Position numbers and translations under genes: made by a program | IMG/VR virus record: IMGVR_UViG_3300028591_000129 | Location: 40,811-104,810 of that record | From: a virus | Taxonomy: Duplodnaviria; Caudoviricetes | Reading direction: 5' to 3' (one strand) | DNA: 64,000 bases | The notes under the pieces: model-generated | The model's database searches: none | What the model saw: the letters and a program-made list of their open reading frames with translations, nothing else | What the model was told of the DNA's origin: nothing | Part shown: positions 580 through 43,700 of the stretch, one piece after another | Position numbering within the stretch: position 1 is the stretch's first letter | Layout of the letters: each line of letters begins with the position of its first letter

Positions 580-617
580 GCATAAATTTAGGACAGCTTT
601 TGACTGCCCTAAAAGTC

Positions 618-734
618 TTACTTTTTCTTTTTGCTTTCCTTGTACTTCTTAATCTCGCTCGGCTTGGGCGCAGGGCGCTTCTTTACGAGTTTTACAGGGT
701 TAAGCAGGTCTCGATTTTCGATTCTCTTTGTCAT
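618..734 (-). CDS. 38-aa Lys-rich peptide following the JAB-like gene
   Basis: MTKRIENRDLLNPVKLVKKRPAPKPSEIKKYKESKKKK; GAGGTG RBS overlaps the upstream stop. Confidence 0.65.
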   Translation of the reverse strand: MTKRIENRDLLNPVKLVKKRPAPKPSEIKKYKESKKKK

Positions 735-739
735 TTTAA

Positions 740-1489
740 TCACCTCTCTAATCCGTATGTGTATCCGTACTTGCCTTGGTTCTCTAACAGCCAATTGTGA
801 GCATTTATATGTGCCACATTGTTTATCCTGTTCAACTGTGCCACGCAATTGTTATATGCTTGGTCGTTCTGTGTGGCGTACTCGGCGCGACTTATCTCAC
901 CTCGCACGCACCTATTCCACAACTCCCTTGATAACGCCCTATATTCTCGTGTTATCGGTGACGCTTGTGCACTTGCTGACCTGCTATTCTCACGTATAAA
1001 GTGTGCATAGTCATTAGCAAACGCAACTGCACTTGCGCGGTCAGCAATCATTGCGGGCGACTTGGTTATGCTGTAAGTGCCCTCGGAAGCAACTGCACGA
1101 AATGAAGATATATTGAACCTTGCCCAATTGTTAATATCTGCGTCGCTGAATGTGCCACCAAGTTCGTCACTTGAGTAGCCTGACCTCGGGTGGATATGTG
1201 AAAAATAATCACCATTGATAAATGCTCGTACAGACGACTTAACAGCGCCCTTACCGCCTCTACGTTCCTCAAGCACCGTTCCGTCAGCAGTTACTACCAT
1301 ACCAAATTCTATCTTGGCGTTCTTACGCTTACTCTCAAACTCTTGTATGCTCCTTGGCATTACGGGGCTTCCGCTATCCGCACTGTATACGAGCGGAATA
1401 TCAACGGTAATCTGACCTCTTGCGCCAAGGTCAACGTCCGTTACGCCTATCGAACGGCTGTTATTATTGTCACTTCCCGAGCTTCCCAT
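740..1489 (-). CDS. JAB/MPN-like metalloenzyme with MGSSG N-terminus
   Basis: E (KIEFG) ... SHIHP ... TFSDAD matches the JAB E-xn-HxH-xn-S-xx-D pattern. Confidence 0.6.
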   Translation of the reverse strand: MGSSGSDNNNSRSIGVTDVDLGARGQITVDIPLVYSADSGSPVMPRSIQEFESKRKNAKIEFGMVVTADGTVLEERRGGKGAVKSSVRAFINGDYFSHIHPRSGYSSDELGGTFSDADINNWARFNISSFRAVASEGTYSITKSPAMIADRASAVAFANDYAHFIRENSRSASAQASPITREYRALSRELWNRCVRGEISRAEYATQNDQAYNNCVAQLNRINNVAHINAHNWLLENQGKYGYTYGLER

Positions 1490-1504
1490 TAGCTTCTTCT
1501 CCTG

Positions 1505-1642
1505 TCACTTCTTACTGTTAAGCTTCTTCTTAAGTGCATTGACTGCCTTTGTATTCTTTGTGTTCTTAACAGGATTGTTTGTGTCATTGTCCGTAGCGAC
1601 AAACCTCATTTTTGCGTTGTTGTCTCTCTTTGTTCTCGGCAC
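1505..1642 (-). CDS. 45-aa Lys-rich peptide, RFVAT family
   Basis: GTG at 1642 behind GGGGGG RBS; MPRTKRDNNAKMRFVATD...KKKLNSKK. Confidence 0.65.
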   Translation of the reverse strand: MPRTKRDNNAKMRFVATDNDTNNPVKNTKNTKAVNALKKKLNSKK

Positions 1643-1659
1643 TTTCAATTCCCCCCTTT

Positions 1660-2397
1660 TTATAAGATTACGTCTATCTCCAAGTACGCCGCGTTCTCGC
1701 CTCTTGCTGTTGACCACTCACGTACTATCCTCGCGTCACCCGTGAAGTTATAGTGCTGATTTCTCTGCACAAGTACCTCGTGTTCTGCGTGATTGTTCGT
1801 CATTATCGCACCCGTACCCTGTTGGACTACTACCCTAAATCGTACAGGGTATGCGTCGAATGTTCCGTGCCCCTTTGTGTATGTCAGTGACGTATATGCA
1901 CGCTGTGTATAGTCCGTTGACTGCAACACATCTCGAAGTGCACTGCTCATACTCGGGTCTGACGCCATTGCCACTTTAAGCCTGCCAAGCTCGCTCTCGC
2001 TTAATCCGAGTATACGAGAAGCTGACCTCAATGACACGTACCTGTACGCTAACAAGTCCTCTGACATAGGCTTCATACCGTTGTCTATCTGTGCTATGTC
2101 CCGCTTAATGTCGCTCTCGCTGTACCCCAAACGTGTCCAATCACTGTCAGGACTTCCGACCTTGCCTGTGTTCAGATAATAGTTAATATCGAATGCCTTT
2201 GAGGTCTTTACATACACCTTTTTACGGGACGGTGCGTCAGGGTCACCTGCTTCATAGCCTGTCTGACCCATATCATTCTGCAACCTGCGCACTTCCTCAC
2301 GCTGTTCCGACCTTGTAAGCCCCTCTAAATTGGTAGCTTCCTCGAACGGGTCGCGCTCCGAAGCGGTGTTTGTTATACGTTCCCCTCGACTGCCCAT
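1660..2397 (-). CDS. ADP-ribosyltransferase, R-S-E (VIP2-like) family, ExE type
   Basis: INYYLN helix, LAYRY (R), AYTSLT (S), AEHEVLVQRN (ExE); N-terminus MGSRG. Confidence 0.75.
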   Translation of the reverse strand: MGSRGERITNTASERDPFEEATNLEGLTRSEQREEVRRLQNDMGQTGYEAGDPDAPSRKKVYVKTSKAFDINYYLNTGKVGSPDSDWTRLGYSESDIKRDIAQIDNGMKPMSEDLLAYRYVSLRSASRILGLSESELGRLKVAMASDPSMSSALRDVLQSTDYTQRAYTSLTYTKGHGTFDAYPVRFRVVVQQGTGAIMTNNHAEHEVLVQRNQHYNFTGDARIVREWSTARGENAAYLEIDVIL

Positions 2398-2401
2398 TCG
2401 A

Positions 2402-2539
2402 TTACTTCTTCACAATCTTAAGCAGACCGTTAGGCATTTTCTCGAACTTCTCGTCAGGCTTAAGCATTCTGCCATATGCAGGTGCGTCAAATCCCGACTT
2501 CTTTTTTGCGTTCTTCTTCGCTGTCTTCTTGTTAGCCAT
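2402..2539 (-). CDS. 45-aa Lys-rich peptide, SGFDAPAYG family
   Basis: MANKKTAKKNAKKKSGFDAPAYGRMLKP...; own promoter and RBS. Confidence 0.75.
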   Translation of the reverse strand: MANKKTAKKNAKKKSGFDAPAYGRMLKPDEKFEKMPNGLLKIVKK

Positions 2540-2570
2540 TACCTTAACCCCTTTCGTGTTGTTTGAGTAT

Positions 2571-2599
2571 ATACTAACATAGTAAGTATAATTTGTCAA
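2571..2599 (-). promoter_or_regulatory. sigmaA-type promoter directly after the ART stop codon
   Basis: TTGACA-17bp-TAGTAT with TG extension. Confidence 0.7.
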
Positions 2600-2601
2600 C
2601 A

Positions 2602-3360
2602 TTAGCTATAATCGTGCTCGATACGTCTGACGACTTCAAGTACAACACGATACTCGGCGCGTCCGTGTGCTCTTCCGCTACCGCCTACGCGCTCATATGA
2701 TACAGGCATAAGAATAAGGTCTCTGTTTAACATAAACTCGCGTTGTCTGTCGCCGTAGTAAGAATTAACGTCGTCGTTACCTAACCACATACCGTAGCCT
2801 GTGCCCGACGGAACTCTAATCTCGTACTCAATCTGCTTGTTACTTCCGATTGTGAGACCCTCACGTGCCGCACCCGTAGACATATTACCTCTTGAATATA
2901 TTTCCTGTCCTATCATACGCTGTATATCCTCTTCCGTTGCTGTCCTGTTTCCTTTTCCCAACAATAACTCAGCCGTTGCACGACGGTGTACCACAAAAGG
3001 GGTATTAATCGTTGAACGGTCAAGGTACTTATCGTATATCCGAGTGGCGTCTTGGTCTTCCTTGTCCATTTTACTGAAACCCTCGTACTGCTGTCCGTCC
3101 ATAAAATGACCATATACCCAAGTGTGGTCAAATGCTAACCACTCGTCACGGTCTTTATTTATCTCGTCATAAAGCTCTTGGGCATTACTATGCTCCAAGA
3201 ACCAACGATTAGTCGCGCCCCCGTCACGCTCATAATTATGCGTATCCGAGTGCCGACTATCGAATGTTTTATATTCGTCCTTGTCCTTGCGTCTTACAGG
3301 CAGTTCACCGCCCGATACTGCGCCTGTGCTCCCCGCAGAAACTCTTCCTGTACTTCCCAC
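2602..3360 (-). CDS. ADP-ribosyltransferase, R-S-E family, QxE type
   Basis: VVHRR (R), GNMSTG (STS-like), YYGDRQREFMLNRD (QxE); N-terminus MGSTG. Confidence 0.75.
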   Translation of the reverse strand: MGSTGRVSAGSTGAVSGGELPVRRKDKDEYKTFDSRHSDTHNYERDGGATNRWFLEHSNAQELYDEINKDRDEWLAFDHTWVYGHFMDGQQYEGFSKMDKEDQDATRIYDKYLDRSTINTPFVVHRRATAELLLGKGNRTATEEDIQRMIGQEIYSRGNMSTGAAREGLTIGSNKQIEYEIRVPSGTGYGMWLGNDDVNSYYGDRQREFMLNRDLILMPVSYERVGGSGRAHGRAEYRVVLEVVRRIEHDYS

Positions 3361-3385
3361 GGCTAATTCTCCTTACACCAAATGC

Positions 3386-3547
3386 TTATTTCTTTGCTCC
3401 CTTGGGTGGTATCATTCTGTATGTTCCGTCGGGAAGCTTCTTGTATGTTGTTCCCTTGGGTACGATTTCACCGTAAGCGGGTGCGTCGAAACCGCTCTTT
3501 CTCTCTGTTGCCTTTGTGTTCTTCTTTGTTGTTTTCTTATTTGCCAT
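3386..3547 (-). CDS. 53-aa Lys-rich peptide, SGFDAPAYG family (not in ORF track)
   Basis: GGAGG RBS; MANKKTTKKNTKATERKSGFDAPAYGEIVPKGTTYKKLPDGTYRMIPPKGAKK. Confidence 0.8.
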   Translation of the reverse strand: MANKKTTKKNTKATERKSGFDAPAYGEIVPKGTTYKKLPDGTYRMIPPKGAKK

Positions 3548-3577
3548 TTTTAGTTCCTCCTTGTATTGTTTGAGTAT

Positions 3578-3606
3578 ATACTAACATAGTAAGTATAGTT
3601 TGTCAA
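3578..3606 (-). promoter_or_regulatory. sigmaA-type promoter directly after the ART stop codon
   Basis: TTGACA-17bp-TAGTAT; one mismatch to 2571-2599. Confidence 0.7.
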
Positions 3607-3609
3607 CTA

Positions 3610-4365
3610 TTAATCGTAATTATGTGGCTGTCTGCCTATATACTCAAGAATTACACGATATTCAGGCGCGGTATCCCACGTCCTATCTTCAATATCTTGC
3701 CTCTCACTTTGTGATATACGCTCATAACCAACTATACGATATGCAGTGTCTCTATTCAGCATAAATTCACGTTGTTGGTCTCCCCAAGTAGGGTTTACAC
3801 TATTGTGTCCTATATACATTCCTGCACCAACAGAGCCCGCAGGGATACGGATAGTATAGTCAATAGGCTTGGAAGCGCCTCTTCCGATAGTAAGTCCGTC
3901 TGCCGCTGCTCCCGTAGACATATTACCGAGAGATATGACCTCATTACCTACTGCATTACGCAACATTTCTTCAGTAACACTGCGTCTGCCCTCTCCGAAT
4001 AATAACTCGGGCGTAGCTCGTCTATGTACTTCAACGCCCTCATTAATGACGGAACGGTCAAGAATATTATCGTAAATACGCGTGTATGTCTGTCTTGTGT
4101 CGTCCATATCAGAGAACTTGCCATACTGTTGACCGCCCATAAAATGACCACGTTCCCAATAGTCAAACGCGTTCAAATGCGCCCTCACCTCGGGGTATAA
4201 CTCTTCAACATTAGAATTTTGTTCAAACCAACGGTAGGTTGCACCTCGGTCACTTTCATAATTATGTGTGCCCTCTGCTTCCCACTTAAATTGGTGGTAC
4301 TTGCCGTCACTTGCACCCGCAAGCATTCGACTTCCCTTATTTTCGTTACCCCCTGTGCTTCCCAC
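3610..4365 (-). CDS. ADP-ribosyltransferase, R-S-E family, QxE type; paralog of 2602-3360
   Basis: EVHRR, GNMSTG, WGDQQREFMLNRD; same TAAGGAGAATTAGCCGTGGGAAG start region as 2602-3360. Confidence 0.75.
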   Translation of the reverse strand: MGSTGGNENKGSRMLAGASDGKYHQFKWEAEGTHNYESDRGATYRWFEQNSNVEELYPEVRAHLNAFDYWERGHFMGGQQYGKFSDMDDTRQTYTRIYDNILDRSVINEGVEVHRRATPELLFGEGRRSVTEEMLRNAVGNEVISLGNMSTGAAADGLTIGRGASKPIDYTIRIPAGSVGAGMYIGHNSVNPTWGDQQREFMLNRDTAYRIVGYERISQSERQDIEDRTWDTAPEYRVILEYIGRQPHNYD

Positions 4366-4390
4366 GGCTAATTCTCCTTATCCTGACTAA

Positions 4391-4495
4391 TTACTTCTTC
4401 TCGGGCTTCTTCTTTCCCTTGGTAATTGTCATTCCTTTGCCTGTTGCAACAAAGCGAGCTTTTGCTTTCTTTGTATCTTCCTTGATATTTGCCAT
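4391..4495 (-). CDS. 34-aa Lys-rich peptide, RFVAT family (not in ORF track)
   Basis: MANIKEDTKKAKARFVATGKGMTITKGKKKPEKK; AGGGGA RBS. Confidence 0.75.
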   Translation of the reverse strand: MANIKEDTKKAKARFVATGKGMTITKGKKKPEKK

Positions 4496-4524
4496 TTCCG
4501 ACTTCCCCTTTCTCGTTTTCTTAC

Positions 4525-4552
4525 ATTATATCACGGTAATTACTACTGTCAA
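4525..4552 (-). promoter_or_regulatory. sigmaA-type promoter overlapping the ART stop codon
   Basis: TTGACA-16bp-TATAAT with TGn extension; the TGA stop lies inside the -35 box. Confidence 0.7.
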
Positions 4553-5247
4553 GGCACTGTCTCTACGGATATAATCAACTGTCTTCCGTCGGCGGACACT
4601 TGTATATCATTAATGCCATAACCGACATTACGGGACAGCACGCACTCCGATTCCATTCCTGTCGGACTGAATATGGCGGGTGTACCCGCTTTTGCGTCGA
4701 TATTTATGCGTACTCTACGATACGAGAACTCCGAATCGGTCAAGGACGTGTCATATGTTGTTGACATATATGCGTGCTCACGCACAAAGTCACCAAGAAG
4801 CACCCTGCGAAGCTCTGCTACGTCATTTTCGTCGAACTTTCTAAAGCCTTTTGAGGCGTCCATAAGGCGTCCTCTCACGTCGTCGTCCAACTCTGCCCCA
4901 CCGTTCGTTATCAAATTCTCTAAATAGCCATTATCCGCCATTCGGACTAACTCAATATCTTTGTTGAGTGGAAGCATACTTTTGTCCATTGCGTCTATCG
5001 TCCTGTATGCCTCTGCAAGCTCGTCCTCGTCACCATATTCAAGCTCAAGTGACGCGCGTACGCTTATTCCGTCGGCTACCGCGTCTCGTAATGCGCCGTT
5101 AATCTTCCACGAGTTTGCAGACTGAAAATAGCCCGAGTTATATATGCCTGACCTGTGCACCATATGTGTAAAGTCGTCGGGGTTTATCTTCGTATAATGT
5201 GTATCTACGTCCGAGTAGTTATCTTTGCTACCGCCTGAACTGCCCAT
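4549..5247 (-). CDS. ADP-ribosyltransferase, R-S-E family, ExE type
   Basis: INGALRD, ELVRM (R), AYMSTT (STT), MESECVLSRN (ExE); start MGSSGG overlaps the upstream stop (TAATG). Confidence 0.75.
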   Translation of the reverse strand: MGSSGGSKDNYSDVDTHYTKINPDDFTHMVHRSGIYNSGYFQSANSWKINGALRDAVADGISVRASLELEYGDEDELAEAYRTIDAMDKSMLPLNKDIELVRMADNGYLENLITNGGAELDDDVRGRLMDASKGFRKFDENDVAELRRVLLGDFVREHAYMSTTYDTSLTDSEFSYRRVRINIDAKAGTPAIFSPTGMESECVLSRNVGYGINDIQVSADGRQLIISVETVP

Positions 5248-5396
5248 TATCTCTTTTTCCTTTTTCGCTCTGTCCAACCGCTCTCTTCGATAGCCTTGCC
5301 TTGCGCTTCAGCTTTCCTACGGGCATTTTTGGCGCGATAGACTTTGCCCGTCGTACCCCATTGGTATCCGTCTTTACCGACCTTATGAACAGGCAT
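5247..5396 (-). CDS. 49-aa small basic protein (not in ORF track)
   Basis: MPVHKVGKDGYQWGTTGKVYRAKNARRKAEAQGKAIEESGWTERKRKKR; GAGG RBS; translationally coupled. Confidence 0.7.
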   Translation of the reverse strand: MPVHKVGKDGYQWGTTGKVYRAKNARRKAEAQGKAIEESGWTERKRKKR

Positions 5397-5401
5397 AGCG
5401 A

Positions 5402-5551
5402 TTACCTCTTCTTATCCTTGACAATCATATGACGTCCGTTGACCGTTACCCAACGCTCGCCTTTCTTAAGCTGACTGTCAATCTTGTCGAAGCTTGCTCT
5501 CTCCTTGGCTGTGACCTTATGCGGTCTCGGTGCGCTCTTCTTCTTCGCCAT
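5402..5551 (-). CDS. 49-aa small basic protein with WVTVNGRH motif (not in ORF track)
   Basis: GGGAG RBS; MAKKKSAPRPHKV...GERWVTVNGRHMIVKDKKR. Confidence 0.7.
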   Translation of the reverse strand: MAKKKSAPRPHKVTAKERASFDKIDSQLKKGERWVTVNGRHMIVKDKKR

Positions 5552-5605: not shown

Positions 5606-5637
5606 TAAAAGTGCCTCAAGCGAACTCAAGGCACTTT
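5606..5637 (-). terminator. intrinsic terminator after the DUF2828-like gene
   Basis: AAAGTGCCTTGAG...CTTGAGGCACTTTT hairpin with T tract. Confidence 0.6.
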
Positions 5638-5642
5638 ATATC

Positions 5643-7115
5643 TCACGCTGTTATGTCCTTATACCTGTCAGACGCAAGAATTTCATTCATAACGTCCAAC
5701 GGTGTCTTCCCCAAGTTATCCATTACCTGCTTCATAATGTTCGGTGAGTATCCTGACACGAGGGACACGCAACTGTCCGACATAGACGCGTGGTAAGTAG
5801 GGTTGACCGCATTCACGTTCCAATAGATAACGTGAGGCAGTCTGTACCCTGCACGCTCGTACTCACCGCGTACGACGTCAGTGAACGTCATAAAGCCGTC
5901 ACTATCACAGCCACGGACACAGTCTACCTGCATATCGGATATGACACAGATAGCTTCAGGCATTTCGTCAGGGTCGATATGATACTTAACGCCTATCTCA
6001 AGTATCCTGTCAAAGACAGCCTTGAGGTTAGTGGAATTACCCCACTCGGAACGATGTACGTCTTCGTACATTTGCCCAAGCGTCTCACCTTTAATCTCTT
6101 TGAGCGTAGGTGTGCTTGAGAAAGTAAAGAACTTGTCCTTGAACTCACCGACGTTGTTCTGTGCGAAGTAGATACCAAGAGAGATAGCAACCGTGAGCGG
6201 TGACATACCGCCACGCCCCCAAGTCATTGAGCCTGAAGTATCCACGACGGCAAGGGCTCTTGTCGTGACCTTGGGTAACTGTGCCCACATAGTGTTTATC
6301 TCGACAGAGTTATCACCCTTGACCACTTTCTGCATAATGTCACACGGATTAGCCGTCGCCATATTCATTTTGGCGTCACCTGTCTTGACCTTGGAAATGT
6401 ACGCGGTGTATCTTTCCCCGTCGTGCCTCTTGAACGCTTCCCTGTTCTGCACGTTACACTTTGAGGGGACTGTCTCGTAGTCAATCTCGCCCCAACGGTT
6501 CGTGGACATTTTAGCTTCAGGGGTGTCTATCGCTTTTCTCAAGGCAACAAGGGCTTTCCTGTACACTGACATAGTCTTAAAGGAATACCCTAACTTCTTG
6601 GCTGTAAGCTTACCTAACTCTGCTGTCTTCTTTGAGGACGCATTCGGTGTGGCAAGCCACTTCGAGAGCAAGGATACAGGCTTGCCCTCCGCGAGGTTAT
6701 GCAAGTCTCTGCGGTACTGACAGGCAATGAAGTCCCACATAGCGTTCTCGGCAGGTGTCCCTATGAGACTGTACAAGTCTTTAGCTCGACCAAACTCAAG
6801 CACGTTGGGAATGTTCTTGACGACGCTGTCAGTATGCGTCTCCGCCAAGTGAGCGAAAATCTGATTAAAGGCGTCTCTCTCCCCAAGCCCGCCACGAATG
6901 TCACGGGCATAGAACAACAGCTTCATAGCACTGTCCTTATCTTCCTTATACGCCTCGTCGAACAGGTCACATTTAGCGTACGCAGACGCCCCGCGAAGAG
7001 CGCCCACTCTCCCAAGGAAGTCAAGACACCTGTTCGAAGTAGACGTAAGGCAGTCAGCCCCATTCCACGTCTTGCCGTGTGTCAGTTCAATGTTAAACGC
7101 GTCAGAAAAATTCAT
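5643..7115 (-). CDS. DUF2828 / TROVE(Ro60)-like protein with C-terminal vWA domain
   Basis: LFYARDIRGGLGER, SLLSKWL, MIDAS motif VVDTSGSM, STNL, ISDMQ, YWNV. Confidence 0.8.
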   Translation of the reverse strand: MNFSDAFNIELTHGKTWNGADCLTSTSNRCLDFLGRVGALRGASAYAKCDLFDEAYKEDKDSAMKLLFYARDIRGGLGERDAFNQIFAHLAETHTDSVVKNIPNVLEFGRAKDLYSLIGTPAENAMWDFIACQYRRDLHNLAEGKPVSLLSKWLATPNASSKKTAELGKLTAKKLGYSFKTMSVYRKALVALRKAIDTPEAKMSTNRWGEIDYETVPSKCNVQNREAFKRHDGERYTAYISKVKTGDAKMNMATANPCDIMQKVVKGDNSVEINTMWAQLPKVTTRALAVVDTSGSMTWGRGGMSPLTVAISLGIYFAQNNVGEFKDKFFTFSSTPTLKEIKGETLGQMYEDVHRSEWGNSTNLKAVFDRILEIGVKYHIDPDEMPEAICVISDMQVDCVRGCDSDGFMTFTDVVRGEYERAGYRLPHVIYWNVNAVNPTYHASMSDSCVSLVSGYSPNIMKQVMDNLGKTPLDVMNEILASDRYKDITA

Positions 7116-7191
7116 AAAAAATACCTCCTACTCTCTAACGTCCTTTGTGTCGCTATCAACCAAGGCAGTTAAATCGTAAAAGGTTTAAGAC

Positions 7192-7326
7192 AAGACCCCG
7201 TGTGGTTTTATTCTGCATATCTGTTTATCATAAGAGTTGCTGTATGGGTCTTTCACCTTATGTTCATAGCAACGAGACACCGTTTCATATCCGCATTATG
7301 TAAAATCATTTTGCTGTCTGTGTCTC
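7192..7326 (-). ncRNA. two tandem ACAGCAA stem-loops (candidate Y-RNA-like or leader elements)
   Basis: GAGACAC-AGACAGCAA...GTGTCTC (7326-7274) and AAGACCC-ATACAGCAA...GGGTCTT (7252-7192). Confidence 0.45.
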
Positions 7327-7340
7327 AACTAATCAAACAT

Positions 7341-7369
7341 AGTATATATCTATTCAAGCGCACTGTCAA
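7341..7369 (-). promoter_or_regulatory. sigmaA-type promoter for the stem-loops and DUF2828-like gene
   Basis: TTGACA-17bp-TATACT. Confidence 0.75.
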
Positions 7370-7809
7370 CATCATTTTTCTCTGCCCGCCGTCAAAATAA
7401 TACTCACCTGCGCGGGAAATAACTACACACTCTGCACTAATAAAAATCAAGCCACCACTCAACACCTGCTTGACGAAAACGCCGTTTTTTCAGGTGGGTG
7501 GGGGTATCCGTGCTCCCGTATGCTCCCTTATGCTCCGTATCGCTCCTGCTTCCCTTGCCAACACTCGCTCGGAAGGTTTTCCTATCACACGTATATGCCC
7601 CGCTCGGAAGGTTCTTGCACGGGAAATTAACTACAATCAATGACATTCAAAAAATTAGCAAGCCCCTCTCCCTCTTGCGGTTTCCATATGGTTTTCTCGG
7701 GGCAGGGGGTGGGGTGCGTGGGGCATAAAATTGCGGGCTGATTTTTGGGTGGGGGTTAAGGTCGTTTCAAGGTGTGGGGGCTGTCCCCCTATATGAAAAG
7801 AAGACAATT

Positions 7810-7836
7810 AAAAAGTCCCGCCTATTGGCGGGGCTT
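7810..7836 (-). terminator. intrinsic terminator after the FtsK-like gene
   Basis: AAGCCCCGCC-AATA-GGCGGGACTT followed by T tract. Confidence 0.7.
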
Positions 7837-7861
7837 GTGGCTGTTGGCTGTCGTTGGAAGA

Positions 7862-40754: not shown

Positions 40755-43700
40755 GTTATAAAATCAAGTGTTGTGAAGTTACTTGAATATTCTATCATAC
40801 ACAGCCTTAAACTGCTCTTCAGTCATTGTCTCTGTGTAAATAGCCATAAGCTCTTCAACAGTTGCTTCTTCCGTGATAATCTCGGCGTCACAAAAGCCAA
40901 GGTTCATATACTTGTCGTTGTCCTCAAGCATATCAAGCACGTTACGCTCGATTACCTTTCTCGGGACATACTTATTGCCAAGTGCGTTTACCTTGTAACC
41001 GACACCGTTTACTCTGCTCATTGTAATTCTCATTCTGATTACCTCGTCTTTCTATGAGTTTGTTTTACTCTTCCATTATAACAGAGTAACGAGTGTTGTC
41101 AATACCATTTTTAAGTATTTTCTGTTCCCGTCAGATTAGGACATTCGTTAGCTACCTCGAACTGCTTCTTTTCCCAACAAGACGAGCAAATATCGCTCTT
41201 TCCGACTACCCTGCCGTTCTCCAAGTTACGGTACACGGTAAAGTAATCCCCCTTGCATTCCTGCTTGCATACGTCACACTTACATACGTTATAAATCATA
41301 CCGTTTTCCCCTTTTTAGCTTCAACTTCCTGTCTTGCGTCACTCAACAATCTGTCGTACAGACTATCCATAAACGAATGGTCAATCGTCATATAAACGTG
41401 CGTTCTATCGTCTTCCCTGCGTGATTTTACTGCACACCACATACCCACATAATCATAGTATGACTTCATAAAGATAAATTCATTTGGGTATTCCTCACGC
41501 AATGCTTCACGCACCTTGGTCACATAATCAAAATAAACCGCACGAAACATACTATTAGCCACTTCACGCACATAGTTAGCAAGAAACTTATAGTTGTAAC
41601 AGTCCCCCTCAAACTCAAAGCAAGTCACGCGTTTTTCTATCGCCTCGGTAATATCTGCACGGATACATTCACGCTGTCTGCTCCCTCTTTCCTTACGGCT
41701 CTCGGGTATACTATCCATTGCCCTAATGCTCACTTCGCTTCCCCCTTACCCATTTCAGCACCACAATGCTTACAGAATTTATCAAGTTTACCCCCTCTAC
41801 CATTACATATAGAACATCTGTATTCATCGGGTTCGTATTGTGGAAAACTTGAATGAAATGTGCAGTTCCACTCGCCTTGCGGTCTTGCCTCTACTGTTGG
41901 GGCATTTGCTATCTGACTTTGACTTATCGCCAAAGCTCCATTTTTAGTCATACAGTCGGGGTATATTTTATCTGCGTTAATTAACCTCATTCTCTGCCCC
42001 CTCTCTCCCTCTCTATGCAGGCGTAATATCTCCAAGTGCGATATAAGGCTCTTGATATAGGCTTTCTCGTAGTCTTGTCTTTTCTTTCTATCGCCAAGCA
42101 CTCAAGGAATGTTCTAATTGCATTTTCAGCACTTACCTTTCTATACCAAATCATTCTCGTCACCCTCGTCAAAGCCTAACCACTCATTCTCGGATATAAC
42201 ACCTGCGATATATTGCATATCTTCTGTGGTAATTACCTGACCTTTACTCTGTAATACTGCGATAAGTCTTTTCATATCTTCACTCATTCTTCTTCTCCTT
42301 TCCTCTCATATCAGCTCCGCACCAATGACAAAATGGATAATACTCGTATTTATAGCCGAAGCCTGTGTCATGACTTATAAGTCTTGTTCTATTGCCACAT
42401 TCGGAACACTCTGCCGTCTTATAGCCTATGTCTATACTATGCTTATTTATCCACTCGCCTTGCGGTCTATCTTCATATGGTGTGCCATTTGCGATAATAG
42501 CTTCTGCAACTTGAGCAATACCTTGTTTCCGCAACCGCTTACACTCATTGTAATAATCTTCAGGAATATCAATTACTATCTTCATTCTCATCCTCCTTAT
42601 AAGGTTTTGGTAAGAATTGCCAAGCAATTATTTCTGTGCCCTTTAGTTCCTCACCACCAAATGTCCAAACGTCGTCAGATAAACGCCTCGCTATATCAAT
42701 ACCTATATAACCTCTACTAACATTCTTTCCTGTCACAAGGTACATTCCACCGACAGCAGGTTCTTGCTCACTAACAGGAATCCACTCGCCTGTCTTTCTT
42801 TTCTCACAACCACGAAGTAGATTGATTGCAAATCTGACAGATTGCTTATCCTTATCATCTGTTAGGTTTTCTAACATTTTCTCCAACTTTGTTATTTCTG
42901 CTTCCGTATCAATTACTATTTTTGCCATTCTCTGCCTCCTTATCATAATCGCTCAGAAAATCCTTCAACAACTCGTAGCACTTGGGACAAAGGTCAAGGT
43001 CTGTTCTCCCTTTACGAGCAATATACGGCTCGCCATTCTGTAACACTCTCGGCTCAAAAATTCTCTTGCACTTATCACATTGAGTTACTTTACTCATTCT
43101 CTGCCTCCTTATCTGATTCTATGATTGTTGGTGCAATAAAATATTCTCGGAGATAACTCGAAAGCACCTCGGGTTTGTATGTACCAAAGCCTATAATATG
43201 TTCTCCATTTTCTTCATACTGGATTGAAAAATATGGTTTACCTCTATATTCGGGATATATGCATATTTCATCGGGCAGATATCTAACCACTATTTCCTCA
43301 AATCTTCTTCCGTGTCCTTTAGGAATAGGTGTGCCATTTGCTATTGCCTGTGCTATCATATCCATTCCTTCATCACCTAACATTGGCGGTCTTCCTTTGT
43401 ATCCTTCATAAAGTTCTTCGGGAATATCAATTGCTATCTTCATTCTCTGCCTCCTCTCATATCATTACCGCACTCCATACAGAATTTAGGTATGTAATCT
43501 CCTTCGCAATAGGTAGTATTCTCACAGAAGGGACAGATATAAGTATCATCATCGCCTTCGATATGTAACCACGCACCTCTCTCAACTATTCTTAATTTAG
43601 ATACATCGACCAAGTTACTACTTTTCTGTTCTTTCTTCCTATGATTCCGTTCTTGCTTCTGCATAGCGGTTTCATAGCCACAACGATAACCCTTTTTGTA

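Follow-up and report, generated by a model that had tools for sequence, protein, structure and literature searches.

An array of phage-tagged putative effector genes, four ADP-ribosyltransferases and a JAB-like protein, each followed by a class-matched lysine-rich micropeptide

The region analyzed here (the window) is a 64,000-nucleotide stretch of the IMG/VR virus record IMGVR_UViG_3300028591_000129 (Duplodnaviria; Caudoviricetes), positions 40,811 to 104,810, which form the right-hand 64 kb of a 104,810-bp record with a CheckV completeness of 100%. Nearly all genes lie on the minus strand. Between positions 5551 and 618 of the window, five minus-strand genes of 232–252 codons alternate with lysine-rich open reading frames (ORFs) of 34–53 codons. 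A preliminary description, made from the sequence alone, had read this region as an array of ADP-ribosyltransferase (ART) and JAB effectors, each followed by a micropeptide of matching class, and every ORF that it named was found in place on the minus strand. Comparative genomics and one controlled structural prediction support the view that these micropeptides are cognate partners of the arrayed enzymes. The genes of the array are as follows, in the 5′ to 3′ order of the minus strand.

5402-5551 (-): basic ORF at the head of the array, 49 aa, beginning MAKKKSAPRP and ending KDKKR; Shine–Dalgarno (SD) score 5, K+R 0.33
5247-5396 (-): basic ORF, 49 aa, its stop overlapping the ART-A start (TAATG); matches phrog_31267 (function unknown; E 2e-6)
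4549-5247 (-): ART-A, putative ExE-type ADP-ribosyltransferase beginning MGSSG; PF03496 45.1 bits, phrog_3895 1e-10; motif E-S-E
4391-4495 (-): pep34, basic peptide of the RF[VIT] class, net charge +9; cognate to ART-A
3610-4365 (-): ART-B, putative QxE-type ADP-ribosyltransferase beginning MGSTG, GTG start; PF03496 21.7 bits
3386-3547 (-): pep53, SGF[DE]AP class; cognate to ART-B and predicted to bind its catalytic cleft
2602-3360 (-): ART-C, putative QxE-type paralogue of ART-B (48% identity) beginning MGSTG; PF03496 24.0 bits
2402-2539 (-): pep45, SGF[DE]AP class; cognate to ART-C
1660-2397 (-): ART-D, putative ExE-type ADP-ribosyltransferase beginning MGSRG, its start 4 nt past the pep45 stop; PF03496 42.4 bits
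1505-1642 (-): pep45′, basic peptide of the RF[VIT] class; cognate to ART-D
740-1489 (-): protein E, putative metallopeptidase resembling JAB/JAMM proteins, featuring a long helical hairpin and beginning MGSSG
618-734 (-): pep38, basic peptide cognate to protein E; divergent, without the Cys of the DCGG[IV]K class

Three of the four ART genes, encoding ART-A, ART-D and ART-C, score above the curated cut-off of PF03496 (23.4 bits), and ART-B, which is 48% identical to ART-C, falls just under it. The division into two QxE and two ExE enzymes was borne out by the motifs, which read Q-R-E in ART-B and ART-C, E-S-E in ART-A and E-H-E in ART-D. R115, S150, Q198 and E200 are invariant in the ART-B/C family alignment (A3), as are E205 and E207 in the ART-D family alignment (A5). 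By their sequences, ART-A to ART-D are thus assigned to the PF03496 family as ADP-ribosyltransferases with intact R-S-(Q/E)xE residues and putative transfer activity. The nearest solved relatives of the ART-B/C profile, all of them remote, are Certhrax (3e-06), Lmo0066 and C3stau2 (9e-04), and no relative of the ART-D family profile was found by sequence among solved structures. P0002, one of the closest homologues, is 81% identical and is located on a 220 kb contig.

The fifth gene had been called a JAB gene, an assignment that stands in its motif and only weakly in its fold, and that no family model supports. Protein E gave no Pfam match at E values up to 1, including no match to a JAB model, and its sole PHROG match was phrog_5057 (function unknown; 0.0016). 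Its family comprises 219 representatives in 1.8 billion proteins, and among 50 members E61, H98, H100, S115 and D118 are invariant, forming a JAMM-type E..HxH..SxxD arrangement. The gap between HxH and SxxD is 14 residues, compared with 7 in the canonical JAMM motif. The AlphaFold model (predicted local distance difference test, pLDDT, 95) contains a long C-terminal helical hairpin, and every top Foldseek match to it was a JAB/MPN protein, albeit weakly (E 0.04 or worse). A second structural aligner (VIA) gave a Z of 5.7 against 5ld9, the archaeal JAMM1 (root-mean-square deviation 3.5 Å over 106 residues), which is below the level that the aligner treats as safe, and a Z of 5.4 against 9ild, the Cap3 protein of CBASS. 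Given the motif and the weak fold match, we describe protein E as JAB-like and not as a proven member of the family.

The micropeptides fall into the classes described previously: pep53 and pep45 share MANKKT..KSGFDAPAYG, pep34 and pep45′ share AK[AM]RFVAT, and pep38 is unlike both. Pfam and PHROG scans of the peptides revealed no known domain and nothing usable except the phrog_31267 match of the ORF at 5247-5396. A profile of the SGF[DE]AP peptides retrieved at least 132 clusters among 5.8 billion proteins, a family that has neither a name nor a Pfam domain, and in which S, G, F, P and G are near-invariant and the motifs are kept at 30–60% protein identity. Each peptide ORF is preceded by an SD site of its own. 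Judging from these SD sites and the conserved motifs, the micropeptide ORFs are real, unannotated genes. Searching at the nucleotide level was less specific: a degenerate DNA pattern for SGF[DE]AP..G matched 22 stretches, 3 of which were true peptides.

Retrieval of related loci in IMG/VR needed family alignments, after single-protein queries gave none (neither ART-D nor protein E recovered any relative there as a single query). Alignments were therefore built from homologues of ART-B/C, ART-D and protein E, and loci were fetched from collections of viral, metagenome and genome sequences; alignment A3 of the ART-B family contributed three loci from the metagenome collection and two from the genome collection. 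The enzyme–peptide layout was seen in 40-odd related phage loci. Downstream of QxE ARTs, a [KR]-[HKR]-S-G-F-[DE]-A-P-x-[YI]-G peptide was present in 12 of 13 loci, often overlapping the enzyme gene or at most 25 nt away; in the thirteenth (L002), a peptide of the SGF[DE]AP class is adjacent but upstream. Homologues of ART-D, a W_D-type ExE ART, are followed by a peptide of the form ..N..RF[VIT].. in 7 further loci, and the RF[VIT]-class peptide was recorded after ART-D homologues in L035, L036, L038-L040 and L042. The Arg of this class is absent in 2 of 9 peptides (K-F in L037, P-W-I in L036), whereas the aromatic residue is always kept. The earlier suggestion that this Arg might serve as a pseudo-substrate of the Arg-specific ExE enzymes thus fits the family imperfectly. 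Homologues of protein E have a ..DCGG[IVY]K.. peptide downstream in 5 of 6 loci. A fourth enzyme family is paired with D[YF]DR[WF] peptides (3 of 3 loci), and two more families match more loosely.

To quantify this pairing, enzyme classes were assigned by BLAST and peptide classes by motif, and the pairs were shuffled 20,000 times. When each enzyme was paired with the peptide downstream of it, 26 of 33 pairs matched in class, compared with a shuffle mean of 8.0; none of the 20,000 shuffles reached 26, although the loci are related by descent and the shuffle figure is not a true probability. Pairing with the peptide upstream gave 2 matches in 16, with 3.0 expected. The preliminary description had drawn the same rule from two instances within the window, stating that the peptide family tracks the enzyme upstream of it and that pairing a peptide with the downstream enzyme gives no match. 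Both statements extend to the related phages, in which ART classes and peptide families do not assort randomly. The order and content of the cassettes vary between phages while each enzyme and its downstream peptide remain together, so that the mobile unit is that pair, a hallmark of a functional unit. The array looks modular: cassettes are shuffled between phages, and ART-B with pep53 and ART-C with pep45 look like a duplicated unit.

Several loci depart from the simple layout. In the array itself, the two 49-aa basic ORFs (5402-5551 and 5247-5396) stand at the head without any enzyme upstream, and the first of them has no Pfam or PHROG match. The richest relative found (L045:3180-6603) encodes four MGRGSSKA-tagged effectors directly upstream of the terminase gene, three of them followed by a basic peptide of their own. 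In a rumen-type phage, two MGGRG...-tagged enzymes are followed not by basic micropeptides but by acidic proteins of 83–85 aa beginning MTFEDAKK or MTFEEAKS (L048:5503-5754 and L048:6460-6717); the array keeps its grammar there with another sort of partner. One more subfamily of ExE ARTs (L037:181-846, L040:4202-4918, L042:4245-4985) has a Lys-rich C-terminal tail of 6–10 residues and no downstream peptide; the presence of the basic tail in cis suggests that it has a role of its own. Several effector homologues in viral contigs (L007:7916-8689, L035:2011-2682, L039:5001-5660 and L049:319-918) are split by frameshifts or stops while the downstream peptides are intact; they may represent toxins in decay whose immunity genes have been kept, or else errors of assembly. 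Finally, a solitary 54-aa ORF (L017:951-1115) with an SGFEAPAIG motif and an acidic C-terminus has no adjacent ART and sits among opposite-strand lysis and tail genes on a viral contig of 81.8 kb that comes from an isolate genome. One possible role is that of an orphan immunity gene directed against superinfecting phages.

The preliminary description had also proposed complex prediction as a check, and for the one enzyme–peptide pair covered, ART-B with pep53, the outcome was positive. With alignments for both partners, the predicted complex reached an ipSAE of 0.86, compared with 0.51 for the best of three controls. Of 80 solved complexes, 58 attained the ipSAE mark used, as did 2 of 110 mismatched pairs. 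At least 74% of the contacts were common to three runs, with a partner pLDDT of at least 68. In the predicted interface, residues 16–29 of pep53, which hold the conserved SGFDAPAYG motif, face ART-B residues 115–118, 141–150, 198 and 200, a surface that includes the invariant catalytic residues R115, S150, Q198 and E200. The model supports, without being proof of it, binding of the pep53 motif in the catalytic cleft of ART-B. For the partners of the zinc-type peptidase, the conserved Cys of the peptides would fit a metal-ligating plug.

A second feature shared by the five enzymes is their N-terminus. All of them begin MGSxG, a start that is otherwise absent from the credible genes of the 104.8 kb genome, and effectors in other phages begin MGSRGGGG, MGATG, MGRGSSKA, MGNGKSGV, MAKGNTGG and others. 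Over tag residues 2–8, identity is 0.64 when different enzyme families of one phage are compared but only 0.24 between phages in a single family. The tag thus goes with the phage, the behavior expected of an address. Its copies differ at synonymous sites, which indicates that selection acts on it at the protein level; on the same grounds, gene conversion and a repeat at the nucleotide level were both ruled out as its origin. One side observation touches the tag: a bovine-gut relative with about 95% identity has an unlike sequence in place of the body of ART-A (4668-5222), with both flanks kept, and one of the breaks lies directly past the codons of the MGSSGGSK tag. This single observation fits cassette exchange.

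The array is located 2.7 kb upstream of the genes for the portal (phrog_533), scaffold and major head protein, and the arrays of relatives abut the terminase or portal gene. A direct connection to a head protein was found in L003, which encodes a 417-aa protein with an N-terminal Phage_Mu_F domain (PF04233, 73.8 bits) and a C-terminal ART that is 40% identical to ART-B over 241 aa, and in which an SGFAAP peptide still lies downstream. This fusion ties the array to the MuF polymorphic toxins and is in line with the toxin-then-immunity order invoked earlier; because the peptide is retained next to a MuF-fused enzyme, it belongs to the catalytic domain and not to the N-terminus. No PF00589 tyrosine integrase was found in the genome, serine recombinases not having been searched for, and the phage is likely to be virulent. 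Two relatives lie on contigs of metagenome-assembled genomes.

Sequence elements that may govern expression were detected at both ends of the array and within it.

5608-5637 (-): terminator-like hairpin, 13-pair stem and T run, closing the upstream TROVE-like gene before the array
4525-4552 (-): promoter-like site, TTGACA-16-TATAAT with TG, 12/12 consensus matches, between ART-A and pep34
3578-3606 (-): promoter-like repeat, copy 1, TTGACA-17-TAGTAT with TG, between ART-B and pep53
2571-2599 (-): promoter-like repeat, copy 2, between ART-C and pep45
587-613 (-): terminator-like hairpin at the end of the array
579 (-): promoter-like repeat, copy 3, directly past the array-ending terminator

Sigma-70-like promoters thus separate ART-A, ART-B and ART-C from their own downstream peptides, a position from which transcription can begin at the peptide and continue into the next enzyme. 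These transcription units begin at the peptide, yet the conserved pair is the enzyme and then the peptide, and no terminator lies between any enzyme and its own downstream peptide. The promoter-like repeat is about 40 nt long, starts TTGACAAA[CT]TATACTTACTATGTTA and occurs exactly three times in the genome (3606, 2599 and 579); its copies are about 97% alike, compared with 48% for the flanking paralogous genes. A single recoded gene comprising a peptide and the enzyme downstream of it was ruled out by the different frames, the intervening stop codons and the SD sites. Each peptide ORF, together with the 5′ end of the next enzyme, is covered by contigs of one sheep-gut RNA library that match the window at 100% identity, and one of these contigs spans the end of ART-B into pep53. 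These contigs reach only parts of the array and such libraries may hold DNA, so that they give a weak hint that the peptide ORFs are transcribed.

The DNA of the window is present in full in one sheep-gut metagenome run, possibly its source, and partially in bovine or sheep gut runs; no near-identical DNA was found in the phage record collection searched. The 5′ neighbor of the array (5643-7115, minus strand) encodes a 490-aa DUF2828/DUF7788 protein, TROVE-like, that matches phrog_850 ('RNA-binding protein') at E 1e-116, and for which an IMG/VR scan with the single protein found no relatives. Upstream of this gene, at 7116-7860, about 750 bp contain no long ORF, and neither Rfam nor ARAGORN found anything there.

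Taken together, the balance of probability tips slightly toward an array of phage effector cassettes in which the peptides occlude their own enzymes and the tagged enzymes are bound for the capsid and the next host. Each cassette would consist of an enzyme with a phage-specific N-terminal tag (here MGSxG) and a flexible linker, followed by a micropeptide of 34–53 aa with a central motif specific to the enzyme family, Lys-rich ends and a net charge of about +10. The peptide would bind its own enzyme and block the catalytic cleft, acting as an immunity or 'safety-pin' inhibitor that silences the ART or JAB-like peptidase in the producer cell. By analogy with MuF-fused toxins and T4 Alt, the tagged enzymes may be headed for the capsid; once packaged, they could travel into the next host alongside the DNA and act there by modifying host proteins.

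A number of observations weigh against this reading. All peptide classes carry a net charge of +8 to +13 (mean +9.6), whatever the charge of the enzyme (-16 to +10), and this uniformity is unexplained by inhibition; the explanation that most readily suggests itself is an affinity for DNA or RNA. Complementarity between an acidic enzyme and a basic peptide was considered and ruled out, given that the enzymes range from -16 to +10 while the peptides stay near +10. Some related effectors that have a short Lys-rich tail in cis lack a separate peptide, and pep38 itself lacks the Cys that is conserved in other peptides partnering JAB-like enzymes. The support for cleft binding consists of model confidence for a single pair. 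No PF04233 (MuF) match was obtained anywhere in the genome, which is rated as 100% complete, and no prohead protease gene is evident between the portal and major head protein genes. A virulent phage would have no obvious need to protect a cell that is soon lysed. Finally, the consensus host-type promoters at three sites inside the array fit early, non-packaged expression as well as they fit the production of excess inhibitor.

An extension of the same idea, which we think unlikely, is a general system for capsid cargo. The tag would be an address read by the phage's own head or portal machinery, and the peptide would both plug the active site and tether the enzyme to DNA, its polycationic ends hitching the enzyme to the genome. 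In this scheme, the enzyme would be taken up and stay inert within the virion, to be set free or activated only upon ejection into the next host.

The alternative that survives best, a serious if rather unlikely possibility, is that the enzymes act early in host takeover and are not packaged, the peptide being a labile, antitoxin-like timer of enzyme activity or amount. The strong sigma-70-type promoters inside the array (TTGACA-16-TATAAT at 4552, and the repeat at 3606, 2599 and 579) and the absence of a MuF domain from the genome are what this would lead one to expect, and the predicted binding at the active site fits it equally well. However, a tag that tracks the phage on unrelated enzymes is hard to explain for cytoplasmic proteins; moreover, the array and its relatives consistently lie beside the portal or terminase gene, and one homologue exists as a fusion with MuF, a head protein.

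It is quite improbable, in our assessment, that the peptides are adaptors for packaging or ejection, with the motif gripping the enzyme and the Lys-rich ends binding DNA so that the cargo travels with the genome. Such a role would account for the charge of +8 to +13 in every peptide class irrespective of the enzyme, for the effectors with a Lys-rich tail in cis in place of a separate peptide and for the position beside the head genes. It is harder to reconcile with the MuF-fused homologue, which is presumably already targeted to the head and nevertheless keeps its peptide, and with a predicted contact surface that is the catalytic cleft and not a neutral handle; the conserved Cys in the partners of the zinc-type peptidase would also look like an active-site ligand.

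We regard as very improbable that the peptides are substrates or activating cofactors, for example by being ADP-ribosylated or cleaved. Predicted binding at the active site is compatible with this, as is the Arg that most peptides partnering the ExE (Arg-specific type) ARTs conserve; however, that Arg is absent in two members of the RF class, conservation in the SGF[DE]AP class is highest at Ser, Gly, Phe, Pro and Gly, with no Asn or Arg acceptor among them, and a dedicated substrate for each enzyme would have no evident use. The idea that the small ORFs are non-functional, whether chance ORFs or leaders for translational coupling to the next enzyme, draws on their very short length and low complexity and on ART-A and ART-D, neither of which has a good SD of its own and both of which start 0–4 nt after the preceding small ORF, but is close to refuted by class-specific motifs conserved at the protein level (30–60% identity, more than 130 clusters), by the SD site of each small ORF and by a motif that tracks the upstream enzyme and not the downstream one.

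If the preferred reading of inhibitory peptides and capsid-bound enzymes holds, several consequences follow. As active-site plugs, the peptides would be ready-made, natural, class-specific inhibitors, both for bacterial-type ARTs and for a JAB-like peptidase. Should the tag be an address for packaging, it would offer a testable handle on how tailed phages without MuF fusions select the protein cargo that they inject, and if the broader cargo scheme were true, any enzyme could become injected cargo through an added tag and an evolved plug peptide. Earlier work has already described ARTs that phages encode close to their head genes, as well as MuF-fused toxins followed by small immunity genes. 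In the literature searched, we found no description of class-faithful micropeptides, of a phage-specific effector tag or of such cassette arrays; the undescribed features are thus the class-specific micropeptides, the phage-specific N-terminal tag and the uniform polycationic ends. Several unannotated micropeptide families are each faithful to one enzyme family, including the unnamed one with at least 132 clusters. A very short N-terminal tag is common to unrelated effectors of one phage and differs between phages, and in phages of gut and rumen bacteria up to five cassettes are joined in one array. ORFs of 34–53 codons, usually dropped by gene callers, thus carry a conserved function in phage genomes.

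Among known systems, the C3, VIP2 and Certhrax exoenzymes (PF03496) belong to the same fold family as the array ARTs and have the catalytic residues R, S-T-S and (Q/E)xE in common with them. In contrast, the array ARTs are remote, phage-encoded, small, single-domain proteins without a translocation component, and their targets are presumably bacterial. Protein E shares the E..HxH..SxxD signature with JAB/JAMM deconjugases, among them the CBASS protein Cap3 and the archaeal JAMM1, but differs from them in lacking a Pfam JAB match, in its longer HxH–SxxD spacing and in its extra C-terminal helical hairpin. Relative to type II toxin–antitoxin systems, the array offers predicted peptide–enzyme binding for one pair, and its peptides match no known domain.

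T4 Alt is an R-S-E ADP-ribosyltransferase that is carried in the head and injected with the DNA, and we know of no cognate inhibitor peptide for it. Phage Alt/VIP2-type ARTs encoded near head genes have been predicted to be head-packaged and injected (PMC9503650), and in T4 a short N-terminal sequence on otherwise unrelated packaged proteins directs them to the prohead (PMC9503650, PMC9958956). The array resembles T4 Alt and the internal proteins in having a short N-terminal sequence common to unrelated proteins of one phage, and this capsid targeting sequence of T4 is the closest analogue of the tag. Its tag is of a different sequence, with no indication of cleavage and no prohead protease gene evident beside the portal gene, so that packaging is suggested here by analogy.

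The orphan cassette arrays of CDI (contact-dependent inhibition of growth) and Rhs loci (Zhang et al. 2012, PMC3482391) are likewise tandem toxin-then-immunity modules that are shuffled as units. Each cassette of the present array, however, has its own start codon and SD site, and several have their own promoter; the genes are stand-alone and presumably expressed, whereas the CDI/Rhs tips are silent, C-terminal and awaiting recombination, and the common element of the array is an N-terminal tag of a few residues.

The closest parallel is provided by the MuF toxins, toxin-type enzymes including ARTs that are encoded near head genes with a small cognate ORF behind each (PMC5576092, PMC12226406). 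Small immunity genes follow these toxins (Jamet et al. 2017, PMC5576092), and IapK, the immunity protein of MuF-Apk2, occludes the active site of its toxin (PMC12226406), the role proposed here for the micropeptides. The ART-B/ART-C homologue in L003 is itself a MuF fusion with the same peptide. MuF toxins have been reported only in temperate phages (PMC5576092), whereas the phage described here has a genome of about 105 kb without a tyrosine integrase. Five cassettes stand in tandem here in comparison with one gene there, and the partners are 34–53 aa long, unstructured-looking and uniformly basic. In place of the MuF domain, which they lack, the enzymes of the array carry a phage-specific tag of 5–8 residues.

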